Shown here piece by piece: positions 1,843 through 8,754 of a stretch of 39,391 nt of DNA. A program made the translations under genes and the position numbers. The stretch covers positions 197,428-236,818 of the forward strand of contig JBAZYN010000001.1 of NCBI GenBank assembly GCA_041659325.1. The letters run 5' to 3'. The notes under the pieces are model-generated. The model was not told where the DNA came from, did not search any database, and saw nothing but the letters and a program-made list of their open reading frames with translations. Origin of the DNA: Candidatus Shapirobacteria bacterium. GTDB lineage: Bacteria; Patescibacteriota; Microgenomatia; UBA12405. Position 1 is the first letter of the stretch. Each line of letters opens with the position of its first letter.

Positions 1843-2391
1843 ATGTCAAACCAAGAAAACAATCTCTGTCCCAAATGTGGTGCCCCGCTTAGTCCGGTTA
1901 CCGAAACTCCCACCGGTCGTCGTTTACAGCGTTGCTCAACTGGGACTTGGAATCCGCAAACCCATAAAACTGATGGTTGTGATTATGTAAAATGGCTCGA
2001 AGTTGAGCCAAAAACCCTGGACGAAGTTTGTCCAAAATGCGGTGCTCCTCTTGTTCTACAGTTGACCAGATTCGGCAAAAAAATGAAAAAATGCTCCAAG
2101 GGTGGCTGGGATAAGGAAGCCAAAAAAGCCACCGGCTGCGATTATGTCGAGTGGATTAATGGCACCAGTGAGCCATTAGATGAAATATGCCCAAAATGTG
2201 GTGAAAAGTTAGTTCTCTACACCACCGCAAACGGCAAAAAGATGAAAAAATGTTCGACGTCCGGCTGGGATAAGGAAGCCAAAAAAGCCACCGGTTGTGA
2301 TTATGTTGAATGGTTGAAAGTTACCAAACCTACGTCAGAAGACACCGGCGAAGAATATCTCCCCCCCGAACCGGAAGATATTGCTTTCTAA
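1843..2391 (+). CDS. Stand-alone protein of three topoisomerase-I-type C4 zinc-ribbon repeats
   Basis: Three CPKCG...C..G.W...GCDYV.W units of 53-54 aa plus an acidic tail; no topoisomerase catalytic core. Confidence 0.8.
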   Translation: MSNQENNLCPKCGAPLSPVTETPTGRRLQRCSTGTWNPQTHKTDGCDYVKWLEVEPKTLDEVCPKCGAPLVLQLTRFGKKMKKCSKGGWDKEAKKATGCDYVEWINGTSEPLDEICPKCGEKLVLYTTANGKKMKKCSTSGWDKEAKKATGCDYVEWLKVTKPTSEDTGEEYLPPEPEDIAF

Positions 2392-2398
2392 AAAATAG

Positions 2399-3292
2399 CT
2401 AAATTACTCCGGCTTCTCGTAGTAACGACATAATCTTCCCATTTCGCTCTATTAGCGTTTGCATCATCCCCCGGTCGATCAAAAAAGCAGATTGCAACTC
2501 TTCTCTCTGGTTTTCAATTGTCACATATTTGATCGGTGGGCATTCTTGGAGTAATTTTCCCAAAGATGTCCACTTTTTTAATGTCATTTCTACAACCGGA
2601 AGTGAATCGTTTTGCTTAAGACCTATTGGAACATGAAGACCCACCGTATCTATCGTTGATGCCGTTTGACGTATGATCTGCAGCGCATTTTCCCAATACT
2701 TTTCTACTATTTTGCCCGTAATAATGTCACCGGATTGGGATAATTCATATAATAAATGAACCAAATCAATCATTACCCCCGCCCTAACACCGAGTTCTTT
2801 TAACCTTCCCACTGCAGCTATTGTCAACCCCATTGAATTAGCTTCCGGTAAATTTTCTACCATAAGACGATTTGCGGGAAAACCTTGGGAAATCCCTACC
2901 ATATCAGCTATCTTTTTTTCTGAATTCACAACGGGCAAATGAACTAAAATATAAGCCCCGGGGAATTTTTTAGATATTTCTACAAGCCGGGTAGGGTCGA
3001 CTATTAGATAATCGAATACCGCTCCCATAAACAGACTTCTTAATGACGGCGGCTTCGACGCGGCTTCAGCCCGACACCCGGGAGGTCCATGTATTCCGTT
3101 AACCTTTAGACCAAGATTATTATATTCACTCCATTTAATGCGACTCAAGCCGACCACCTCAAGCCCAATACCGGATTTTACTAAGTCCACTCTAGAATAA
3201 GCTTCACGAACCTGATCTAGACGACCAGGAGCTCCGGCAATATCAGTCGACACAGAAACAATTACCGTTTCTTTCCTAGTCACAGGCAACAT
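2399..3292 (-). CDS. Hypothetical protein, probable xylose-isomerase/AP-endonuclease-2-like TIM barrel
   Basis: Ordered motifs IHGP, LVH, VEN, IDLVH, GLHV and IEN match that fold's metal-ligand spacing; true start may be GTG 3283, 7 nt after TGaTAAAAT. Confidence 0.5.
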   Translation of the reverse strand: MLPVTRKETVIVSVSTDIAGAPGRLDQVREAYSRVDLVKSGIGLEVVGLSRIKWSEYNNLGLKVNGIHGPPGCRAEAASKPPSLRSLFMGAVFDYLIVDPTRLVEISKKFPGAYILVHLPVVNSEKKIADMVGISQGFPANRLMVENLPEANSMGLTIAAVGRLKELGVRAGVMIDLVHLLYELSQSGDIITGKIVEKYWENALQIIRQTASTIDTVGLHVPIGLKQNDSLPVVEMTLKKWTSLGKLLQECPPIKYVTIENQREELQSAFLIDRGMMQTLIERNGKIMSLLREAGVI

Positions 3293-3339
3293 TTTATCAT
3301 AATTTATAAAATGTCGATGTCAACGTGTATAATTCGTCC

Positions 3340-4326
3340 ATGTCAGACGTTATCTCCCTTTTCAAAAAACTAATCTCTACCCCCTCGGTCACCGGTAATG
3401 AGCAAAACATCTGTCTCGAGGTCTACAACATGCTGACAGATGAAGGTTTTTCGACCAAAAAGATTCCTGTGTCGGACAACCGATTTAACATTTTTGCTAG
3501 TCTTGGTATACCAAAAGTTATTCTATCTGCGCACCTTGATACGGTATCACCATATATCCCACCAAAAGAAACCGATACTCATATTTATGGTCGTGGTTCC
3601 TGCGACACTAAATCCTGTGTCGCCTCCATGATTACGGCCGCCGTTAAGTGCAAGGAAGACGGACTATCAAATTTTGGCTTAATCTTTACGGTTGGCGAAG
3701 AGGAAGATTTTGACGGTGCCATAAAAATAAAAGAATCGGGATTAAAAATTCCCTTTATAATCGTTGGCGAACCAACCTCATTGGAAATCGTAAATGGTCA
3801 CTTTGGCATGCTGGTATTGAAAATTACCGCCCCGGGCAAAGCGGCTCATAGCAGTACCCCCGAAAAAGGTATTAACGCCATAGATAGTTTAATTTTAGCC
3901 ATCAAGCAGATTCAGTCAATTCCCATTTATCCCGATTCACTGATGAGTTTGGTAAAAATTGATGGTGGAATCGCCGACAATATAATTCCGGCTGAATCAA
4001 ATTGCACCTTTTCGTTTAGGATTCATCCGCAGGATACCAACGATTATCAAAAGATTATTAAGTCAGTTATCGGCTCCTCGTACAAAATAACAAAGATTTT
4101 GGATGCTTCCAGTGTTTATTCGAAAGTCCCGAATGAATTGTCATTTATAAAAAAACAAAAAATAGTCAAGTATGGTACTGATTTGTCGATATTAAAAAAT
4201 GGAATTGTTCTTGGGCCGGGTGATATCAAATACGCCCACGGGGATAATGAACAAATTAAGAAAAGTGAACTAAAAAGAGCGGTTAACGTTTATTATGAAA
4301 TAATTAAGAATTTTGTGGTAAAATAA
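3340..4326 (+). CDS. M20 family metallo-hydrolase (ArgE/DapE-like)
   Basis: SAHLDTV, GRGSCDTK, GEEED, VGEP, GKAAHSS and AHGDNE motifs; ATG 3340 lies 6 nt after TATAAT. Confidence 0.9.
   Translation: MSDVISLFKKLISTPSVTGNEQNICLEVYNMLTDEGFSTKKIPVSDNRFNIFASLGIPKVILSAHLDTVSPYIPPKETDTHIYGRGSCDTKSCVASMITAAVKCKEDGLSNFGLIFTVGEEEDFDGAIKIKESGLKIPFIIVGEPTSLEIVNGHFGMLVLKITAPGKAAHSSTPEKGINAIDSLILAIKQIQSIPIYPDSLMSLVKIDGGIADNIIPAESNCTFSFRIHPQDTNDYQKIIKSVIGSSYKITKILDASSVYSKVPNELSFIKKQKIVKYGTDLSILKNGIVLGPGDIKYAHGDNEQIKKSELKRAVNVYYEIIKNFVVK
4316..4324 (+). promoter_or_regulatory. Extended -10 promoter for a leaderless His leader peptide
   Basis: TGgTAAAAT lies 7 nt before ATG 4332, the same geometry seen at many other genes in the window. 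Confidence 0.65.
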
Positions 4327-4331
4327 CCCCA

Positions 4332-4376
4332 ATGACCAATCAAATAAGATCAATTGCTCATCATCACGCTAACTAG
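4332..4376 (+). CDS. Histidine attenuator leader peptide MTNQIRSIAHHHAN
   Basis: ATG 4332 to TAG 4376 with consecutive CAT CAT CAC at 4359-4367, directly followed by mutually exclusive hairpins. Confidence 0.8.
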   Translation: MTNQIRSIAHHHAN

Positions 4377-4432
4377 TTGTTGGCGGATTTGATTGTGTCA
4401 AAATTACCGCCAACAAATGGCGGTTCTTTTTT
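4367..4432 (+). promoter_or_regulatory. Transcription attenuator (protector, antiterminator, terminator)
   Basis: 1:2 CGCTAAC 4367-4373 / GTTGGCG 4379-4385; 2:3 TTGTTGGCGG 4377-4386 / CCGCCAACAA 4407-4416 (perfect 10 bp); 3:4 ACCGCCA 4406-4412 / TGGCGGT 4418-4424 followed by TCTTTTTT. Confidence 0.8.
4406..4432 (+). terminator. Intrinsic terminator (attenuator 3:4)
   Basis: 7-bp GC-rich stem, 5-nt loop and T-tract. Confidence 0.8.
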
Positions 4433-4488
4433 GTACTTTTTAGGTCGAAATTTAAAGGGAAGCGCCTAAATTTTGCCTAAAAATACAA

Positions 4489-4513
4489 TCCCGATTGCGA
4501 AGCGTCATCGGGA
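4489..4513. repeat. TCCCGA...TCGGGA-type palindrome
   Basis: TCCCGAT-tgcgaagcgtc-ATCGGGA; similar arms at 8862-8883 and 29869-29890. Confidence 0.55.
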
Positions 4514-4603
4514 AGGCTCATTTACTTACATGGTGGAACGTAGGAGTTTTGGTAAAAATTTAAACGTCCCAACCACGTCGGTTTGCTTTAGCAAACTATA
4601 CTT

Positions 4604-4677
4604 GGTGGTATTAGCTCAATGGTTAGAGCGCTGCTCTGTGAAAGCAGAGGTTGCCGGTTCGACCCCGGTATACCACC
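4604..4677 (+). tRNA. tRNA-His(GTG)
   Basis: 8-bp acceptor GGTGGTAT/ATACCACC including the G-1:C73 identity pair; anticodon arm CTGCT-CTGTGAA-AGCAG; T-loop GGTTCGAC; full CCA not encoded. Confidence 0.97.
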
Positions 4678-4913
4678 CAACAGTATCCGAAATTATTATA
4701 ATCTACATGACGAGATCCAGTAATTGTTTGTAATTTTTGATAAATCTGTTTTCTTAAAACATTATATAGTCATCATCCCCCCAAGCGGTGGATTGTTAAC
4801 CAATATCATTGCCTTAAACTAGGCTGACTACCTTCAGGTAAATGTTTATAAAATAATATTGTTTGGCATTACTATAATGCCATTAAGAAAAGATGTAAAA
4901 TTGATGCGTAAGA

Positions 4914-6386
4914 ATGCAAACATATAAACAGTTACGAAGAACAAGAAAGCTTAAGAAGTTTGGGAAGAAGGTTGTTATTGCCATTCTGTTTTTAGGTATA
5001 AGTTATCTGCTTTCCCTATTGTCGTTCTATATTTATACCCAACTGTCACAGATTTTACAGCCGGCAGAAAAAGGATTTTTGGGATTTGCCATTATTGGTG
5101 TAATCGCAGGACTTGTTGCCGTACTTGTTTCATTTGCCAATAAGCGACTGGTTCTAACTGTGGTTATTTCGTTTCTTGTTGACTGCCTGGTTAACAGTAT
5201 CATTTTATTTTCCAGCTTAGGCACAAAAGTTATCTCGTTTCTCCCTGGTTTAATGGTCGGAATGTTTACAGTGGTTGGCTCTGGATATTTATTAAGAAGA
5301 AAATTCGGTTTTCTTGATATAAGTATTCTGTCCCCGCGTTGCCTGAAAGAAAAGGATTACAAAAAATATGCTCTCGCCCGAAAACTATTAGAAAACCCGA
5401 ATAAAATTACTATGACAATCTTGAATGATGCTTGCGGACTTTTTCAAGATAAAGACGTTGATCCAAAAATTGGCGCAGTATTAAAGGAGGTGGACAATTT
5501 TACCAGAGCACTAGGTGGTGATGTAGCGGGGTTTATTGTGGCCCACATAAAAACAGAGACAGAAAAAGATGAAGAAAAAAAAGAGAAAGTATTGTTTTTT
5601 ATTGATCTTATAAACGATATAAAAGAAGAAATTGACTTCGCCTTTGTTAGGATAGGATCTGGCGAAGCCAAAAACTTTGTTGATCATCCGATAAAGCAGG
5701 CTCATCACAGTTATATAGCTAGTGCAGCGACATCGGCTAATAACCCGTCTATTGTGGCCACCATTGTGGCCGGATCGGTAATTGCTACCAGTGCCGCGGG
5801 AATTATTCCTGGTCTTCCCCTTATATCACAAAATGTTATCCACCCGAAAGAAATACAATCTACTCAGGGAATAGTCAGACCTACGCAAACCGCGACTCCA
5901 ACAATTTTGCCAACAGAGACACCGACGCCCAAACCCACAAACAAACCAGCCATAATTTTTTCAGCCGTCGAGAAAACTTTTTTCGTCTCCGCTCCCCAAG
6001 AAGGAACCATTTTTACCGTTAACGCCAGCGGAACATACAGGTTTACTATTATTGGAGGAGCAGCAGAGATTTCTCCGCAAAAATCCCAACCAAATTACCC
6101 TGAGCAATGGGGATGGCAAACAAAATTGTTGATTTATAAAAACCGAGCCATTGCATTTGGCCCAACTCTTTCGGGATTAGGTAATCCTCTTGTAGGGTGG
6201 ATTTATCTCATGGGTGATCCAAATTTAAAGCCAACAGCCGCAGAAGCCGAACAATCCGGCAAAGGGAAATACATAGACCTTACTTTGAATAAAGATGATT
6301 ATCTGATCTTTATTGTTGATGATTCAGATGGTGGTTTTGTAGATAATAACGGAGGCGTATCCCTCCAAGTTCAAAAGGGAGTCTAA
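4914..6386 (+). CDS. Hypothetical membrane-anchored surface protein
   Basis: Basic N-terminus, about 4 hydrophobic segments, a charged middle region, another hydrophobic stretch, a PT-rich linker and a beta-rich C-terminal domain. Confidence 0.7.
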   Translation: MQTYKQLRRTRKLKKFGKKVVIAILFLGISYLLSLLSFYIYTQLSQILQPAEKGFLGFAIIGVIAGLVAVLVSFANKRLVLTVVISFLVDCLVNSIILFSSLGTKVISFLPGLMVGMFTVVGSGYLLRRKFGFLDISILSPRCLKEKDYKKYALARKLLENPNKITMTILNDACGLFQDKDVDPKIGAVLKEVDNFTRALGGDVAGFIVAHIKTETEKDEEKKEKVLFFIDLINDIKEEIDFAFVRIGSGEAKNFVDHPIKQAHHSYIASAATSANNPSIVATIVAGSVIATSAAGIIPGLPLISQNVIHPKEIQSTQGIVRPTQTATPTILPTETPTPKPTNKPAIIFSAVEKTFFVSAPQEGTIFTVNASGTYRFTIIGGAAEISPQKSQPNYPEQWGWQTKLLIYKNRAIAFGPTLSGLGNPLVGWIYLMGDPNLKPTAAEAEQSGKGKYIDLTLNKDDYLIFIVDDSDGGFVDNNGGVSLQVQKGV

Positions 6387-6516: not shown

Positions 6517-6612
6517 ATGAACTTTATAAACTTTAATACTTATTCGCATCATACCCATACCGTGGTCACCATTCCGCGGGGTATTGCAGTGACCATCCTC
6601 AAATCTTTCTAG
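6517..6612 (+). CDS. Putative His attenuator leader peptide MNFINFNTYSHHTHTVVTIPRGIAVTILKSF
   Basis: CAT CAT ACC CAT at 6547-6558; lies upstream of a terminator and the GNAT-hisS operon. Confidence 0.6.
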   Translation: MNFINFNTYSHHTHTVVTIPRGIAVTILKSF

Positions 6613-6633
6613 AAAAGATAAATATTAACTTTT

Positions 6634-6659
6634 AAACCCCCGCAATCGCGGGGGTTTTT
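6634..6659 (+). terminator. Intrinsic terminator in the hisS operon leader
   Basis: AAACCCCCGC-AATC-GCGGGGGTTT followed by TTCGTTTCTTT; left arm also complementary to ATT-cc-GCGGGG at 6571-6581. Confidence 0.85.
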
Positions 6660-6763
6660 CGTTTCTTTGGGTCAAATAATAAACCGAATGGTGAAATATT
6701 TTGACCTAAGACACAATCCGATAGCTTAAGATAATCGGGATAAATTTATTTAACAAAATTATT

Positions 6764-7462
6764 ATGATCAAAGAAATATCATTATTAACATTATCTCCGG
6801 AGACAATTATCGCCTCCGATCAAATTAGTCAAATTGCGATTTTATATGCCGATGTTTTTCGGGGACCACCATGGAACGAAGCGGTAAAATGCAATTCTTG
6901 CAAAAAATACGAAGAGGAATCGGTTGCCGTTAATTCTCCATGTCCTTGTGGTGGTTATTTCAGTGAAGCTTATCCTTTGTCGGAAACCAAGGGTTATATT
7001 GAGTCAGAATCTCAAATACCTGGCTTCCGTCTCACACTTGTGAAAGATAAGGAACAAGTCGTGGGTTTCGCCTGGAGTTACCTAACCACTCCGGCAAAAC
7101 TTGTTGTTGCCAAATGGTCAGATCCACAAAATCAACAGTCCATACTTAAAGTTCTTGAAAGAAATGATTTAACTCCTAATACTCAATTTCGCTATTTCTG
7201 TGAAATTGGCATTGCTCCGGAATATAGAGGTCTCGGTCTTTCAAACTATCTTTCCAAACAGGTTGTGGGCTCTGAACCAACTCTGTTTAGAACCAACATT
7301 GGCACCAAAATGATGGCGGTCGGAGCGACTCTTGGCTTTGAACAAATAATGGGGCCGGAAGTAACTGTCGATCGTTCAGGTGGCATAATTATTCCCACCG
7401 GGAAAATATTTAACCGCCTTGATTCCGAAAGAGAGGATCGGGTTCTATTTTTAAAATCATAA
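6764..7462 (+). CDS. GNAT-family N-acetyltransferase with a Cys-rich insert
   Basis: YADVF..PPWNE N-terminal motif, VVGFAWSY, and acetyl-CoA motif EIGIAPEYRGLGLS; CxxC...CPC cluster. Confidence 0.75.
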   Translation: MIKEISLLTLSPETIIASDQISQIAILYADVFRGPPWNEAVKCNSCKKYEEESVAVNSPCPCGGYFSEAYPLSETKGYIESESQIPGFRLTLVKDKEQVVGFAWSYLTTPAKLVVAKWSDPQNQQSILKVLERNDLTPNTQFRYFCEIGIAPEYRGLGLSNYLSKQVVGSEPTLFRTNIGTKMMAVGATLGFEQIMGPEVTVDRSGGIIIPTGKIFNRLDSEREDRVLFLKS

Positions 7463-7470
7463 AAATTTCA

Positions 7471-8754
7471 ATGCTACAATCAACTATGAATCAACTAATT
7501 CAACCGGTTAAAGGTACCCGTGATTTTTATCCCGAAGATCAGGCCTTTCAAACTTGGTTTTTCCAAAAAGTCAGGGAAGTTTCTGAAACCTTTGGGTTTC
7601 AGGAATACAACGGTCCGTTTCTGGAGCCTCTGGAACTTTATGCCGCCAAATCAGGTGAGGAGCTGGTTAAAAAACAAGCTTTTACTTTAACTGATCAGTC
7701 GGGAAAAATTCTAGCTCTAAGGCCGGAAATGACACCCACTCTCGCCCGCATGATTGCCCAAAAAGACGGTGAATTAACCTTTCCCGTAAAGTGGTGGACT
7801 TATGGCTCACGTTACAGATACGAAAAACCCCAGAAAGGTCGTGGACGGGAGTTTTTTCAGTGGGATTGCGATATTATCGGTACCGACGGATTCGAGGCCG
7901 ATGCCGAAGCAATTGCCATCGCCGCTACCATGTATAGAAAATTAGGATTAACCTCCACAGATGTAAAAATAAAAATCAATGATCGCCAACTTCTTCAAGG
8001 TGAACTTTTAAATATCGGAGTCCCGGAAAATCTAATTGTTAATGTTTTTAGAATTGCTGATAAAAAAGACAAAGTTACCGAAGTGGATTTCAAAGAAATG
8101 CTTTTAGAAACCGGACTAACCGAGTCACAGACGGATATGGTTAAGAAAACTCTTGAAGACAAAGATCTTTATAAAAAATCTGAATGGCTTTTAAAAATTT
8201 TTGATCTTTTAAAAATTTATGGAATTTCCGATTTTGTAGAATTTGATCCCGGGATTGTTCGTGGACTTGAATATTACACCAGAACCGTTTTTGAAGGTTG
8301 GGATGTAAACGGAGAATTTCGGGCCATCTGGGGCGGTGGCAGATATGACAATCTAGTTGCTGATGTCGGTTCCAAAAACAAAGTACCCGGAGTTGGCTTT
8401 GCAATGGGGGATATGGTTATTGCCGAAGTTTTGAAACAATATAAAAAATATCCGGTCCTTTCTGCAAATAAATCCAAGGTCTTAGTAACTGTATTTTCAC
8501 CGGAACTTTTTAACAGTTCACTCGAAGTCACAAACATACTTCGAAAAAATAACATAAATACCGAAATCTACCTTAACCCCGACATAAAAATTGATAAACA
8601 ATTAAAATATGCCGATAAAAAGGGTATTCCTTATGTTATAGTTCTCGGCCCTGATGAAATTAAAGCCGACTCGGTTACGATAAAAAATATGTCTTCTGGT
8701 ACTCAAACTACAGTCAAGAAAGAAGACGTGGTTAATTCAATAACTCCAAGTTGA
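7471..8754 (+). CDS. hisS: Histidine--tRNA ligase
   Basis: KGTRDF, LRPEMT, RYEKPQKGRGREFFQ, RGLEYYT and GGGRYD motifs plus anticodon-binding domain; start may be ATG 7486. Confidence 0.97.
   Translation: MLQSTMNQLIQPVKGTRDFYPEDQAFQTWFFQKVREVSETFGFQEYNGPFLEPLELYAAKSGEELVKKQAFTLTDQSGKILALRPEMTPTLARMIAQKDGELTFPVKWWTYGSRYRYEKPQKGRGREFFQWDCDIIGTDGFEADAEAIAIAATMYRKLGLTSTDVKIKINDRQLLQGELLNIGVPENLIVNVFRIADKKDKVTEVDFKEMLLETGLTESQTDMVKKTLEDKDLYKKSEWLLKIFDLLKIYGISDFVEFDPGIVRGLEYYTRTVFEGWDVNGEFRAIWGGGRYDNLVADVGSKNKVPGVGFAMGDMVIAEVLKQYKKYPVLSANKSKVLVTVFSPELFNSSLEVTNILRKNNINTEIYLNPDIKIDKQLKYADKKGIPYVIVLGPDEIKADSVTIKNMSSGTQTTVKKEDVVNSITPS

Follow-up and report, generated by a model that had tools for sequence, protein, structure and literature searches.

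Leader-peptide attenuation is a textbook mechanism, its known targets being the operons of amino-acid biosynthesis and a few aminoacyl-tRNA synthetase genes, and the locus considered here raises the question of what such a device would do upstream of a gene for a tRNA. The locus lies in 39,391 nucleotides of DNA from a Candidatus Shapirobacteria bacterium (contig JBAZYN010000001.1, 573,898 bp; the whole stretch that was analyzed is referred to as the window in what follows), in which a short open reading frame (ORF) with three His codons is followed by a set of alternative hairpins, an intrinsic terminator and tRNA-His. The histidyl-tRNA synthetase (HisRS) of the window is closest to proteins from metagenome-assembled genomes of Shapirobacteria/Microgenomates (52-75% identity). 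The host is an uncultured, Ca. Shapirobacteria-like member of the Patescibacteria (candidate phyla radiation, CPR) with a tiny genome, and CPR bacteria generally lack amino-acid biosynthesis. As set out below, the element is very probably a functional His attenuator that reads into tRNA-His and, judged from its sequence context, it is the first of two predicted tandem His attenuators of a tRNA-His/hisS operon. That it materially sets the level of tRNA-His in the source organism is a separate and weaker claim, toward which we lean only slightly.

A leader with three alternative pairings

The leader is made up of the following elements.

4316..4324, + strand: probable extended -10 element, TGGTAAAAT, overlapping the last codons and the stop of an M20 peptidase gene
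4332..4376, + strand: leader ORF encoding MTNQIRSIAHHHAN, 14 codons, with CAT CAT CAC at 4359-4367 and the stop codon TAG at 4374-4376
4333..4400, + strand: outer 'protector' helix P0 of the minimum free energy (MFE) structure, 4333-4343 with 4389-4400, enclosing the 1:2 hairpin
4367..4385, + strand: 1:2 anti-antiterminator hairpin, CGCTAAC (4367-4373), loop TAGTT, GTTGGCG (4379-4385)
4377..4416, + strand: 2:3 antiterminator, TTGTTGGCGG (4377-4386) with CCGCCAACAA (4407-4416)
4406..4432, + strand: 3:4 intrinsic terminator, ACCGCCA (4406-4412), loop ACAAA, TGGCGGT (4418-4424), then TCTTTTTT

Everything that an initial annotation of this DNA had described in the leader was located as claimed, namely the ORF for MTNQIRSIAHHHAN with its three His codons, a 1:2 protector of 7 bp including one G-U pair, a perfect 10-bp 2:3 antiterminator with the inner cap TTTGAT/GTCAAA and a 3:4 terminator with the T tract TCTTTTTTG, which precedes tRNA-His by 172 nt when counted from that tract. 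Folding of 4327-4440, a check of the kind proposed together with that annotation, gives an MFE structure containing both 1:2 and 3:4 and, beyond the features it had listed, the outer helix formed by 4333-4343 and 4389-4400. The MFE is -32.4 kcal/mol, compared with a shuffle mean of -19.1 ± 3.0 kcal/mol (z = -4.43), and none of 200 shuffles is as stable. The geometry is tight: the third His codon supplies with its last base (4367) the first base of segment 1, and the stop codon (4374-4376) sits within the 1:2 loop TAGTT and abuts segment 2, which starts at 4377. Since antiterminator and terminator share segment 3, the two pairings are mutually exclusive. When all 39 kb of the window were screened strictly for terminators, five hits were returned, only two of which lie on the + strand (4406-4424 and 6634-6657), and each of these two is preceded by a His-rich mini-ORF. 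Strong intrinsic terminators are thus rare in the window by this screen.

The folding behavior was compared over seven lineages, the window plus six other lineages of Ca. Shapirobacteria-like Patescibacteria (L081, L088, L166, L171, L173 and L176 types). A MAFFT alignment of the leaders misaligned the terminator between two sequence groups, and constrained folds of each sequence were used instead, in which a ribosome was represented by masking the RNA to 13 nt past the A-site His codon or to 13 nt past the stop codon, a footprint size that derives from knowledge of E. coli. With the ribosome stalled at the His codons the MFE structure changes to 2:3 in the window, L166, L173 and L176, and with the ribosome at the stop codon the terminator is formed in all seven lineages. 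In nascent RNA from which segment 4 is missing the 2:3 pairing forms in every lineage (7-13 bp, -12.0 to -18.2 kcal/mol, the lowest value being that of the window), the terminator hairpin alone amounting to -11.3 to -12.6 kcal/mol. This kinetic case, nascent RNA before segment 4 is made, is in our model the relevant one.

Conservation and covariation of the leader

Relatives were found through homologues of two flanking proteins, the M20 peptidase and a GNAT-like protein encoded farther downstream. At 72-77% identity the M20 homologues (L081-L083, L084, L085/L086 and L088) all have the leader directly 3' of M20, with leader peptides MTNQFRTIAHHHAN, MTNQFRTIVHHHAN and MTNQFVIVAHHHAN, each ending at a stop codon. 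The GNAT-like homologues at 46-56% identity (L166, L171, L173-175 and L176, as well as L168/L169, truncated on the upstream side) lead to loci where the leader stands not after M20 but after a divergently transcribed gene, and here the peptides, likewise complete to the stop, read MSNKTLCLNHHHANL, MLTKTLRSSHHHTNF and MIDTRLVQGHHYTNF. More distant M20 relatives at 48-58% identity (L087, L089-L093) have no such element after M20. Within 4 kb upstream of hisS no His-rich mini-ORF is found in L001-L010 and L076, whose HisRS is 52-75% identical to that of the window, and in L007 tRNA-His precedes hisS with ordinary terminators and without the leader, so that the device is patchy even within Shapirobacteria/Microgenomates.

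The distance from the ATG to the first His codon is exactly 9 codons (27 nt) in each of the seven lineages, the nine N-terminal codons themselves being almost unrelated, and a stop, TAG or TAA, is always present 2-3 codons past the His run, which is HHH in six lineages and HHY in one (L173). The RNA helices covary. In L173 and L176 the 1:2 pairing is CACTAAC/GTTGGTG, a compensatory G-C to A-U change relative to CGCTAAC/GTTGGCG, and the new U in segment 2 still forms a wobble pair with a G of segment 3, as the alternative-pairing model requires. An Ala to Thr change in the peptide tracks the RNA pairing, with the frame kept. The outer helix is built from four different sequence pairs at differing positions within the ORF, those of the relatives being TATGTTTAAA/TTTAAACATA in L166, ACACGTTTA/TAAACGTGT in L173 and TACGTT/AACGTA in L176, and the antiterminator has an invariant core, GUUGGYGG/CCGCC, with a flank that is UUG/CAA in the window and AAG/CUU in L176.

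A promoter-like site precedes the leader. In the window it reads ATGAAA-18-TAAAAT with a TG extension, the leader ATG following 7 nt after the -10 element, and in L166 and L176 the corresponding site is TTGACT-16-TAAAAT, with a score of 10/12. In lineages where the -35 box has given way to M20 coding sequence, the -10 element is TG-extended, in the form TGGTAAAAT or TGTTAAAAT, the latter occurring in L081, L084 and L088. The distance from TAAAAT to the ATG is 6-7 nt in all seven lineages and the leader ORF is therefore probably leaderless, or nearly so, the start of transcription being placed by the geometry of the -10 element. A promoter of its own in lineages that lack the upstream gene (L166, L176) means that the element is not merely a terminator for M20.

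A second, predicted His attenuator in front of hisS

The remaining features around the leader are given below.

3325-4326, + strand: M20 peptidase gene
4431..4513, + strand: structured spacer module, an AT-rich hairpin (4431-4488) and a CCCGAT/ATCGGG hairpin (4489-4513)
4528..4603, + strand: two-hairpin insert of ~70 nt directly 5' of the tRNA, lineage-specific
4604..4678, + strand: tRNA-His (anticodon GTG), ARAGORN 4605-4678 with an encoded G-1 at 4604; Rfam tRNA, 68.2 bits
4914..6386, + strand: 490-aa ORF with N-terminal hydrophobic segments and a Thr/Pro-rich linker
6517..6612, + strand: second His leader ORF encoding MNFINFNTYSHHTHTVVTIPRGIAVTILKSF, with HHTH and the H-x-H-T-V motif
6634..6657, + strand: terminator of the second attenuator, AAACCCCCGC, loop AATC, GCGGGGGTTT, then a T tract
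6764..7462, + strand: GNAT-like gene, 232 aa, weak Pfam Acetyltransf_1 match (E = 0.06), first gene after attenuator 2
7471..8754, + strand: hisS (histidyl-tRNA synthetase), Pfam tRNA-synt_His (2.4e-41) plus HGTP_anticodon

The initial annotation had let the unit end at the tRNA or at the gene beginning at 4914. It extends farther, taking in a second His attenuator as well as hisS. The second leader has H-x-H-T-V at codon 11, and terminator 2 has the stem CCCCGC/GCGGGG, in all relatives; in L081 and L088 the start codon of this leader is TTG, at an unchanged distance. Only 6-7 nt separate the 3' end of the tRNA from the ATG of leader 2 in L171 and L176, so tRNA and leader 2 must be co-transcribed there. 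No terminator-like site was found on the + strand between 4424 and 6634. The 490-aa ORF, which has no Pfam match, is absent from this position in L081, L088, L166, L171 and L176; by this comparison it is a lineage-specific insertion between the tRNA and leader 2 and, from its place between tRNA-His and attenuator 2, it would be co-transcribed on read-through. GNAT-like homologues always occur in the hisS cluster, the order after terminator 2 in the relatives being the GNAT-like gene, usually an M20 paralogue or a nucleoside hydrolase, and then hisS. From these comparisons the ancestral unit is reconstructed as promoter, leader 1 with attenuator 1, tRNA-His, leader 2 with attenuator 2, GNAT-like gene, (M20) and hisS.

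The cluster of GNAT-like gene, M20 peptidase (~375 aa) and hisS, followed by rpmE and prfA, is seen in L166 (5001-8206), L168, L170, L173, L176 and L177; L171 has a nucleoside hydrolase in place of M20 between the GNAT-like gene and hisS, and L177 has both. The M20 gene of the window (3325-4326) was considered as an orthologue of the cluster M20, but the two proteins are 36% identical over part of their length and are thus paralogues. The linkage of a GNAT protein and an M20 hydrolase to hisS suggests some His-related chemistry, for example N-acyl-His or dipeptide turnover. Elsewhere in the neighborhood, pheS and pheT lie between a zinc-ribbon gene and a 294-aa gene in L081-L085 (L081 2185-5097) and are absent from that position in the window (2391-2399), so that this neighborhood has been rearranged.

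Does the attenuator control tRNA-His?

In six of the seven lineages (window, L081-83, L088, L166, L171 and L176) tRNA-His is the next element after the terminator, and the contigs of L168/L169 begin in a T-rich tract just before tRNA-His. The spacer between terminator and tRNA varies in length, from 8 nt in L088 through ~30 nt in L176, ~100 nt in L081 and ~105-110 nt in L166/L171 to 172 nt in the window. The L088 case is the most telling, since there the 8-nt T tract TCTTTTAT is all that lies between the terminator stem and G-1, with no promoter-like site, which leaves read-through as the sole way to make the tRNA. The initial annotation had named transcription of the tRNA from an internal promoter as the finding that would speak against its reading; the window spacer contains neither a site of at least 9/12 nor a TG-extended -10 element with a proper hexamer, and L088 leaves no room for a promoter.

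A possible, although rather unlikely, alternative is that the attenuator is real and that its working target is the hisS operon (leader 2, GNAT-like gene and hisS), tRNA-His being a passenger that is made mostly from its own promoter or from another copy and whose level the attenuator does not meaningfully control. Much of what counts for it belongs to a larger body of observations that weigh against a functional attenuator setting the level of tRNA-His. To begin with the leader itself, no Shine-Dalgarno sequence precedes the ORF in the window; the His codons and segment 1 are identical in nucleotides in most lineages, so that conservation of HHH alone cannot separate a coding from an RNA constraint; and L081, L088 and partly L171 have a shorter antiterminator (7-8 bp) that loses to the terminator at equilibrium and that, in L081 and L088, must win kinetically. 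A search of sequence runs found the stretch in one DNA groundwater metagenome, plus partial tRNA matches, and in no RNA run. As for the tRNA, L173, L174 and L175 retain attenuator 1 (HHY) directly before attenuator 2 with no tRNA behind it, only the other tRNA-His copy having been kept. In L176 the 30 nt that separate terminator and tRNA hold a perfect extended -10 element, TGATATAAT, and the spacer of L166 has a promoter-like site of 9/12. The long spacer of the window (172 nt) is highly structured (-54.5 kcal/mol, z = -4.12 for 4425-4604) and partly conserved, including ATACAA, and its TACAAT (4484-4489) may be a weak internal promoter. Finally, L166 and L171 have a second, identical tRNA-His ~1 kb upstream with a TGTTAAAAT promoter of its own, the pairs being located as follows.

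L166, 3666-3742 and 4706-4782: tRNA-His pair, one with its own promoter, the other behind the attenuator
L171, 3367-3443 and 4751-4827: tRNA-His pair, one with its own promoter, the other behind the attenuator

These second copies, together with the loss of the tRNA in L173-175, indicate that for some members of the clade the tRNA behind the attenuator is an extra copy, inducible and dispensable, and control of the tRNA by the attenuator is probably not exclusive in all lineages. Of the feedback loop put forward in the initial annotation, the attenuator and the position of tRNA-His behind it hold, and exclusive control probably does not hold in L166, L171, L173 and L176. Against a mere passenger, on the other hand, stand the promoterless 8-nt gap of L088, the lack of a strong promoter-like site in the spacer of the window and the placement of the tRNA between both attenuators in six of seven lineages. 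A second identical copy in the source organism is weakly argued against by the Logan contig of the source metagenome, which runs unbroken through the tRNA, and tblastn with the genes that flank the second tRNA-His copy of the relatives found nothing in the window.

In the module that follows the terminator, a long AT-rich hairpin, whose A(A/C)GCC-type loop is conserved and whose 3' end holds ATACAA, is joined by a CCCGAT/ATCGGG hairpin, and the module includes the TACAAT noted above. It recurs after terminator 2 of the window (~6663-6740) and after the attenuator terminators of L166, L171, L173 and L176, with these coordinates in three of them.

L166, 4610-4690: module
L173, 3865-3975: module
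L176, 1712-1782: module

It is not a genome-wide repeat, only one exact copy occurring in the window, nor does it look like a sigma-70 promoter, since no consistent -35/-10 geometry was seen across lineages. It may serve in processing or stability of the RNA, or as an operator combined with a weak promoter. The ~70-nt insert (4528-4603) is shared only with L081 (~7122-7196) and is absent from L088, L166 and L171. GGTGG, the first bases of the tRNA, stands on both sides of it, and the insert looks like a small insertion with target duplication. No CCA is encoded at the 3' end of tRNA-His. In L088 the region after tRNA-His (812-985) holds 3.9 tandem copies of a 45-nt unit resembling the 3' half of tRNA-His (GCAGAGGTTG...TATACCACCC), in which a TCCCGAT-GCA-ATCGGGA hairpin takes the place of the T arm.

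Other readings of the element

The same conservation of HHH and of segment 1 as nucleotides, the missing Shine-Dalgarno sequence and the further conserved structured module after the terminator would also suit a protein- or tRNA-binding riboregulator, T-box-like or other, whose small ORF is not translated. We regard this as improbable. An Rfam cmscan of 3800-5400 at E <= 10 returned only the tRNA plus noise, with neither the His_leader family RF00514 nor the T-box RF00230 among the matches, and several properties of the ORF are those of a translated frame: nine divergent N-terminal codons of constant length, an ATG at constant distance from the -10 box, a stop kept through the TAG/TAA change and an Ala to Thr change that follows the pairing with the frame preserved.

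Still less probable is the suggestion, made in the initial annotation, of a relic left after loss of an operon for histidine biosynthesis or transport. The degraded HHY motif of one lineage and the general lack of amino-acid biosynthesis in CPR bacteria fit it, but it fails on the relatives, none of the seven lineages having his biosynthesis or transporter genes downstream and all having tRNA-His and/or the GNAT-like gene with hisS, and helices, promoter and ORF are intact and covarying, which is unexpected of a relic. A plain intrinsic terminator of M20, with the HHH mini-ORF and the alternative pairings arising by chance, has next to no probability: M20 does need a terminator, and 5 nt separate its stop from the ORF, which has no Shine-Dalgarno sequence, but leader and terminator follow a divergent gene, with their own TTGACT-16-TAAAAT and no M20 upstream, in L166, L171, L173 and L176, the M20 orthologues at 48-58% identity lack the element, and the frame, start distance and stop of the ORF are conserved and the helices covary.

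Proposed mechanism

A ribosome-mediated leader-peptide transcription attenuator that senses charged tRNA-His would account for the element as follows, where we infer from sequence the transcription start, translation of the ORF, the coupling of transcription and translation and the response to His-tRNA-His. Transcription would start 6-7 nt past TAAAAT and the 14-codon ORF would be translated leaderless or near-leaderless; in the lineage of the window read-through transcripts of M20 may also feed the leader, with ribosomes re-initiating 5 nt past the M20 stop. With no ribosome on the leader, the ORF region would fold onto segment 2 through the outer helix and 1:2, and 3:4 would terminate transcription. 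When His-tRNA-His is plentiful the ribosome would reach the stop codon, 0-3 nt from segment 2, and cover that segment, again leaving 3:4 to terminate. When His-tRNA-His is scarce, a ribosome stalled on CAT-CAT-CAC would melt the outer helix and cover segment 1, and segment 2, freed in this way, would pair with segment 3 and prevent the terminator from forming. Read-through would then yield tRNA-His and the inserted 490-aa gene before meeting the second attenuator (6517-6657), which would gate the GNAT-like gene and hisS. The locus as a whole would be a two-stage homeostat for His-tRNA-His, stage 1 adding tRNA-His and stage 2 adding the GNAT-like protein and HisRS.

In its most specific form the proposal combines direct autogenous control, charged tRNA-His setting its own gene by way of a leaderless HHH mini-ORF, with tRNA excision that makes the near-leaderless 5' end of leader 2 (6-7 nt in L171 and L176) and with a sequential two-stage sensor for first the tRNA and then the synthetase, acting on what is possibly the only tRNA-His gene of the organism. 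We hold this full combination as tentative, with somewhat less than even confidence.

Relation to known systems

The leader resembles hisL of E. coli and Salmonella (RF00514) in having consecutive His codons, mutually exclusive 1:2, 2:3 and 3:4 pairings and an intrinsic terminator, and in the sensing, as proposed here, of His-tRNA-His by ribosome stalling, and the proposed mode of action is likewise that of the trp leader. It differs in that it has three His codons rather than seven, does not match RF00514 and is probably leaderless and not driven by a Shine-Dalgarno sequence, in that it would control a tRNA gene and hisS and not biosynthetic enzymes, and in that it occurs in Patescibacteria. 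Closer in its target is pheM-pheST of E. coli, a leader-peptide attenuator of an aminoacyl-tRNA synthetase operon, where the charging machinery is likewise controlled and not biosynthesis; there, however, the amino acid is another, the unit contains no tRNA gene, the attenuator is single and the leader is led by a Shine-Dalgarno sequence.

Leaderless leader peptides precede aminoacyl-tRNA synthetase and biosynthesis genes in Deinococcus deserti, where differential RNA sequencing places the starts at or 1 nt before the AUG (PMC4007540). These are similar to the present leader in the leaderless start and in the synthetase targets, the start having been mapped in D. deserti and being derived here from the -10 spacing, and neither a tRNA gene as target nor a tandem arrangement was reported there (PMC4007540). 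In the Bacillus cereus group, His leader peptides are predicted upstream of hisZ and of a hisS paralogue (PMC2965389), and for other Firmicutes His-leader attenuators have been predicted in a study that also mentions double T-boxes (PMC9413887). Like the element described here they are lineage-specific, found outside Proteobacteria and unrelated to RF00514, and one stands before a gene of the hisS family; they differ in sequence and lineage and have no tRNA gene behind the attenuator. Two termination switches in series on one transcript are found in the Salmonella mgtCBR leader with its tandem attenuators (PMC3641672) and in double T-boxes. In the window, by contrast, a functional tRNA gene lies between the switches, so that each stage would release a different product, tRNA-His and then HisRS. 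No leader-peptide attenuator preceding a tRNA gene, and none at all in Patescibacteria, turned up in a full-text search of the literature of incomplete coverage. The mechanism is classical; its novelty lies in the target, which is a tRNA gene, in the arrangement of two attenuators in tandem and in the lineage.

Should the tRNA indeed be controlled in this manner, the loop would be the shortest possible one, the sensed molecule regulating its own gene. It would also mean that auxotrophic bacteria with tiny genomes and no His biosynthesis meet a shortage of His-tRNA through charging capacity, that is tRNA and HisRS, and not through synthesis of the amino acid, and the tandem layout would offer a compact natural model for staged attenuation and for leaderless leader ORFs.

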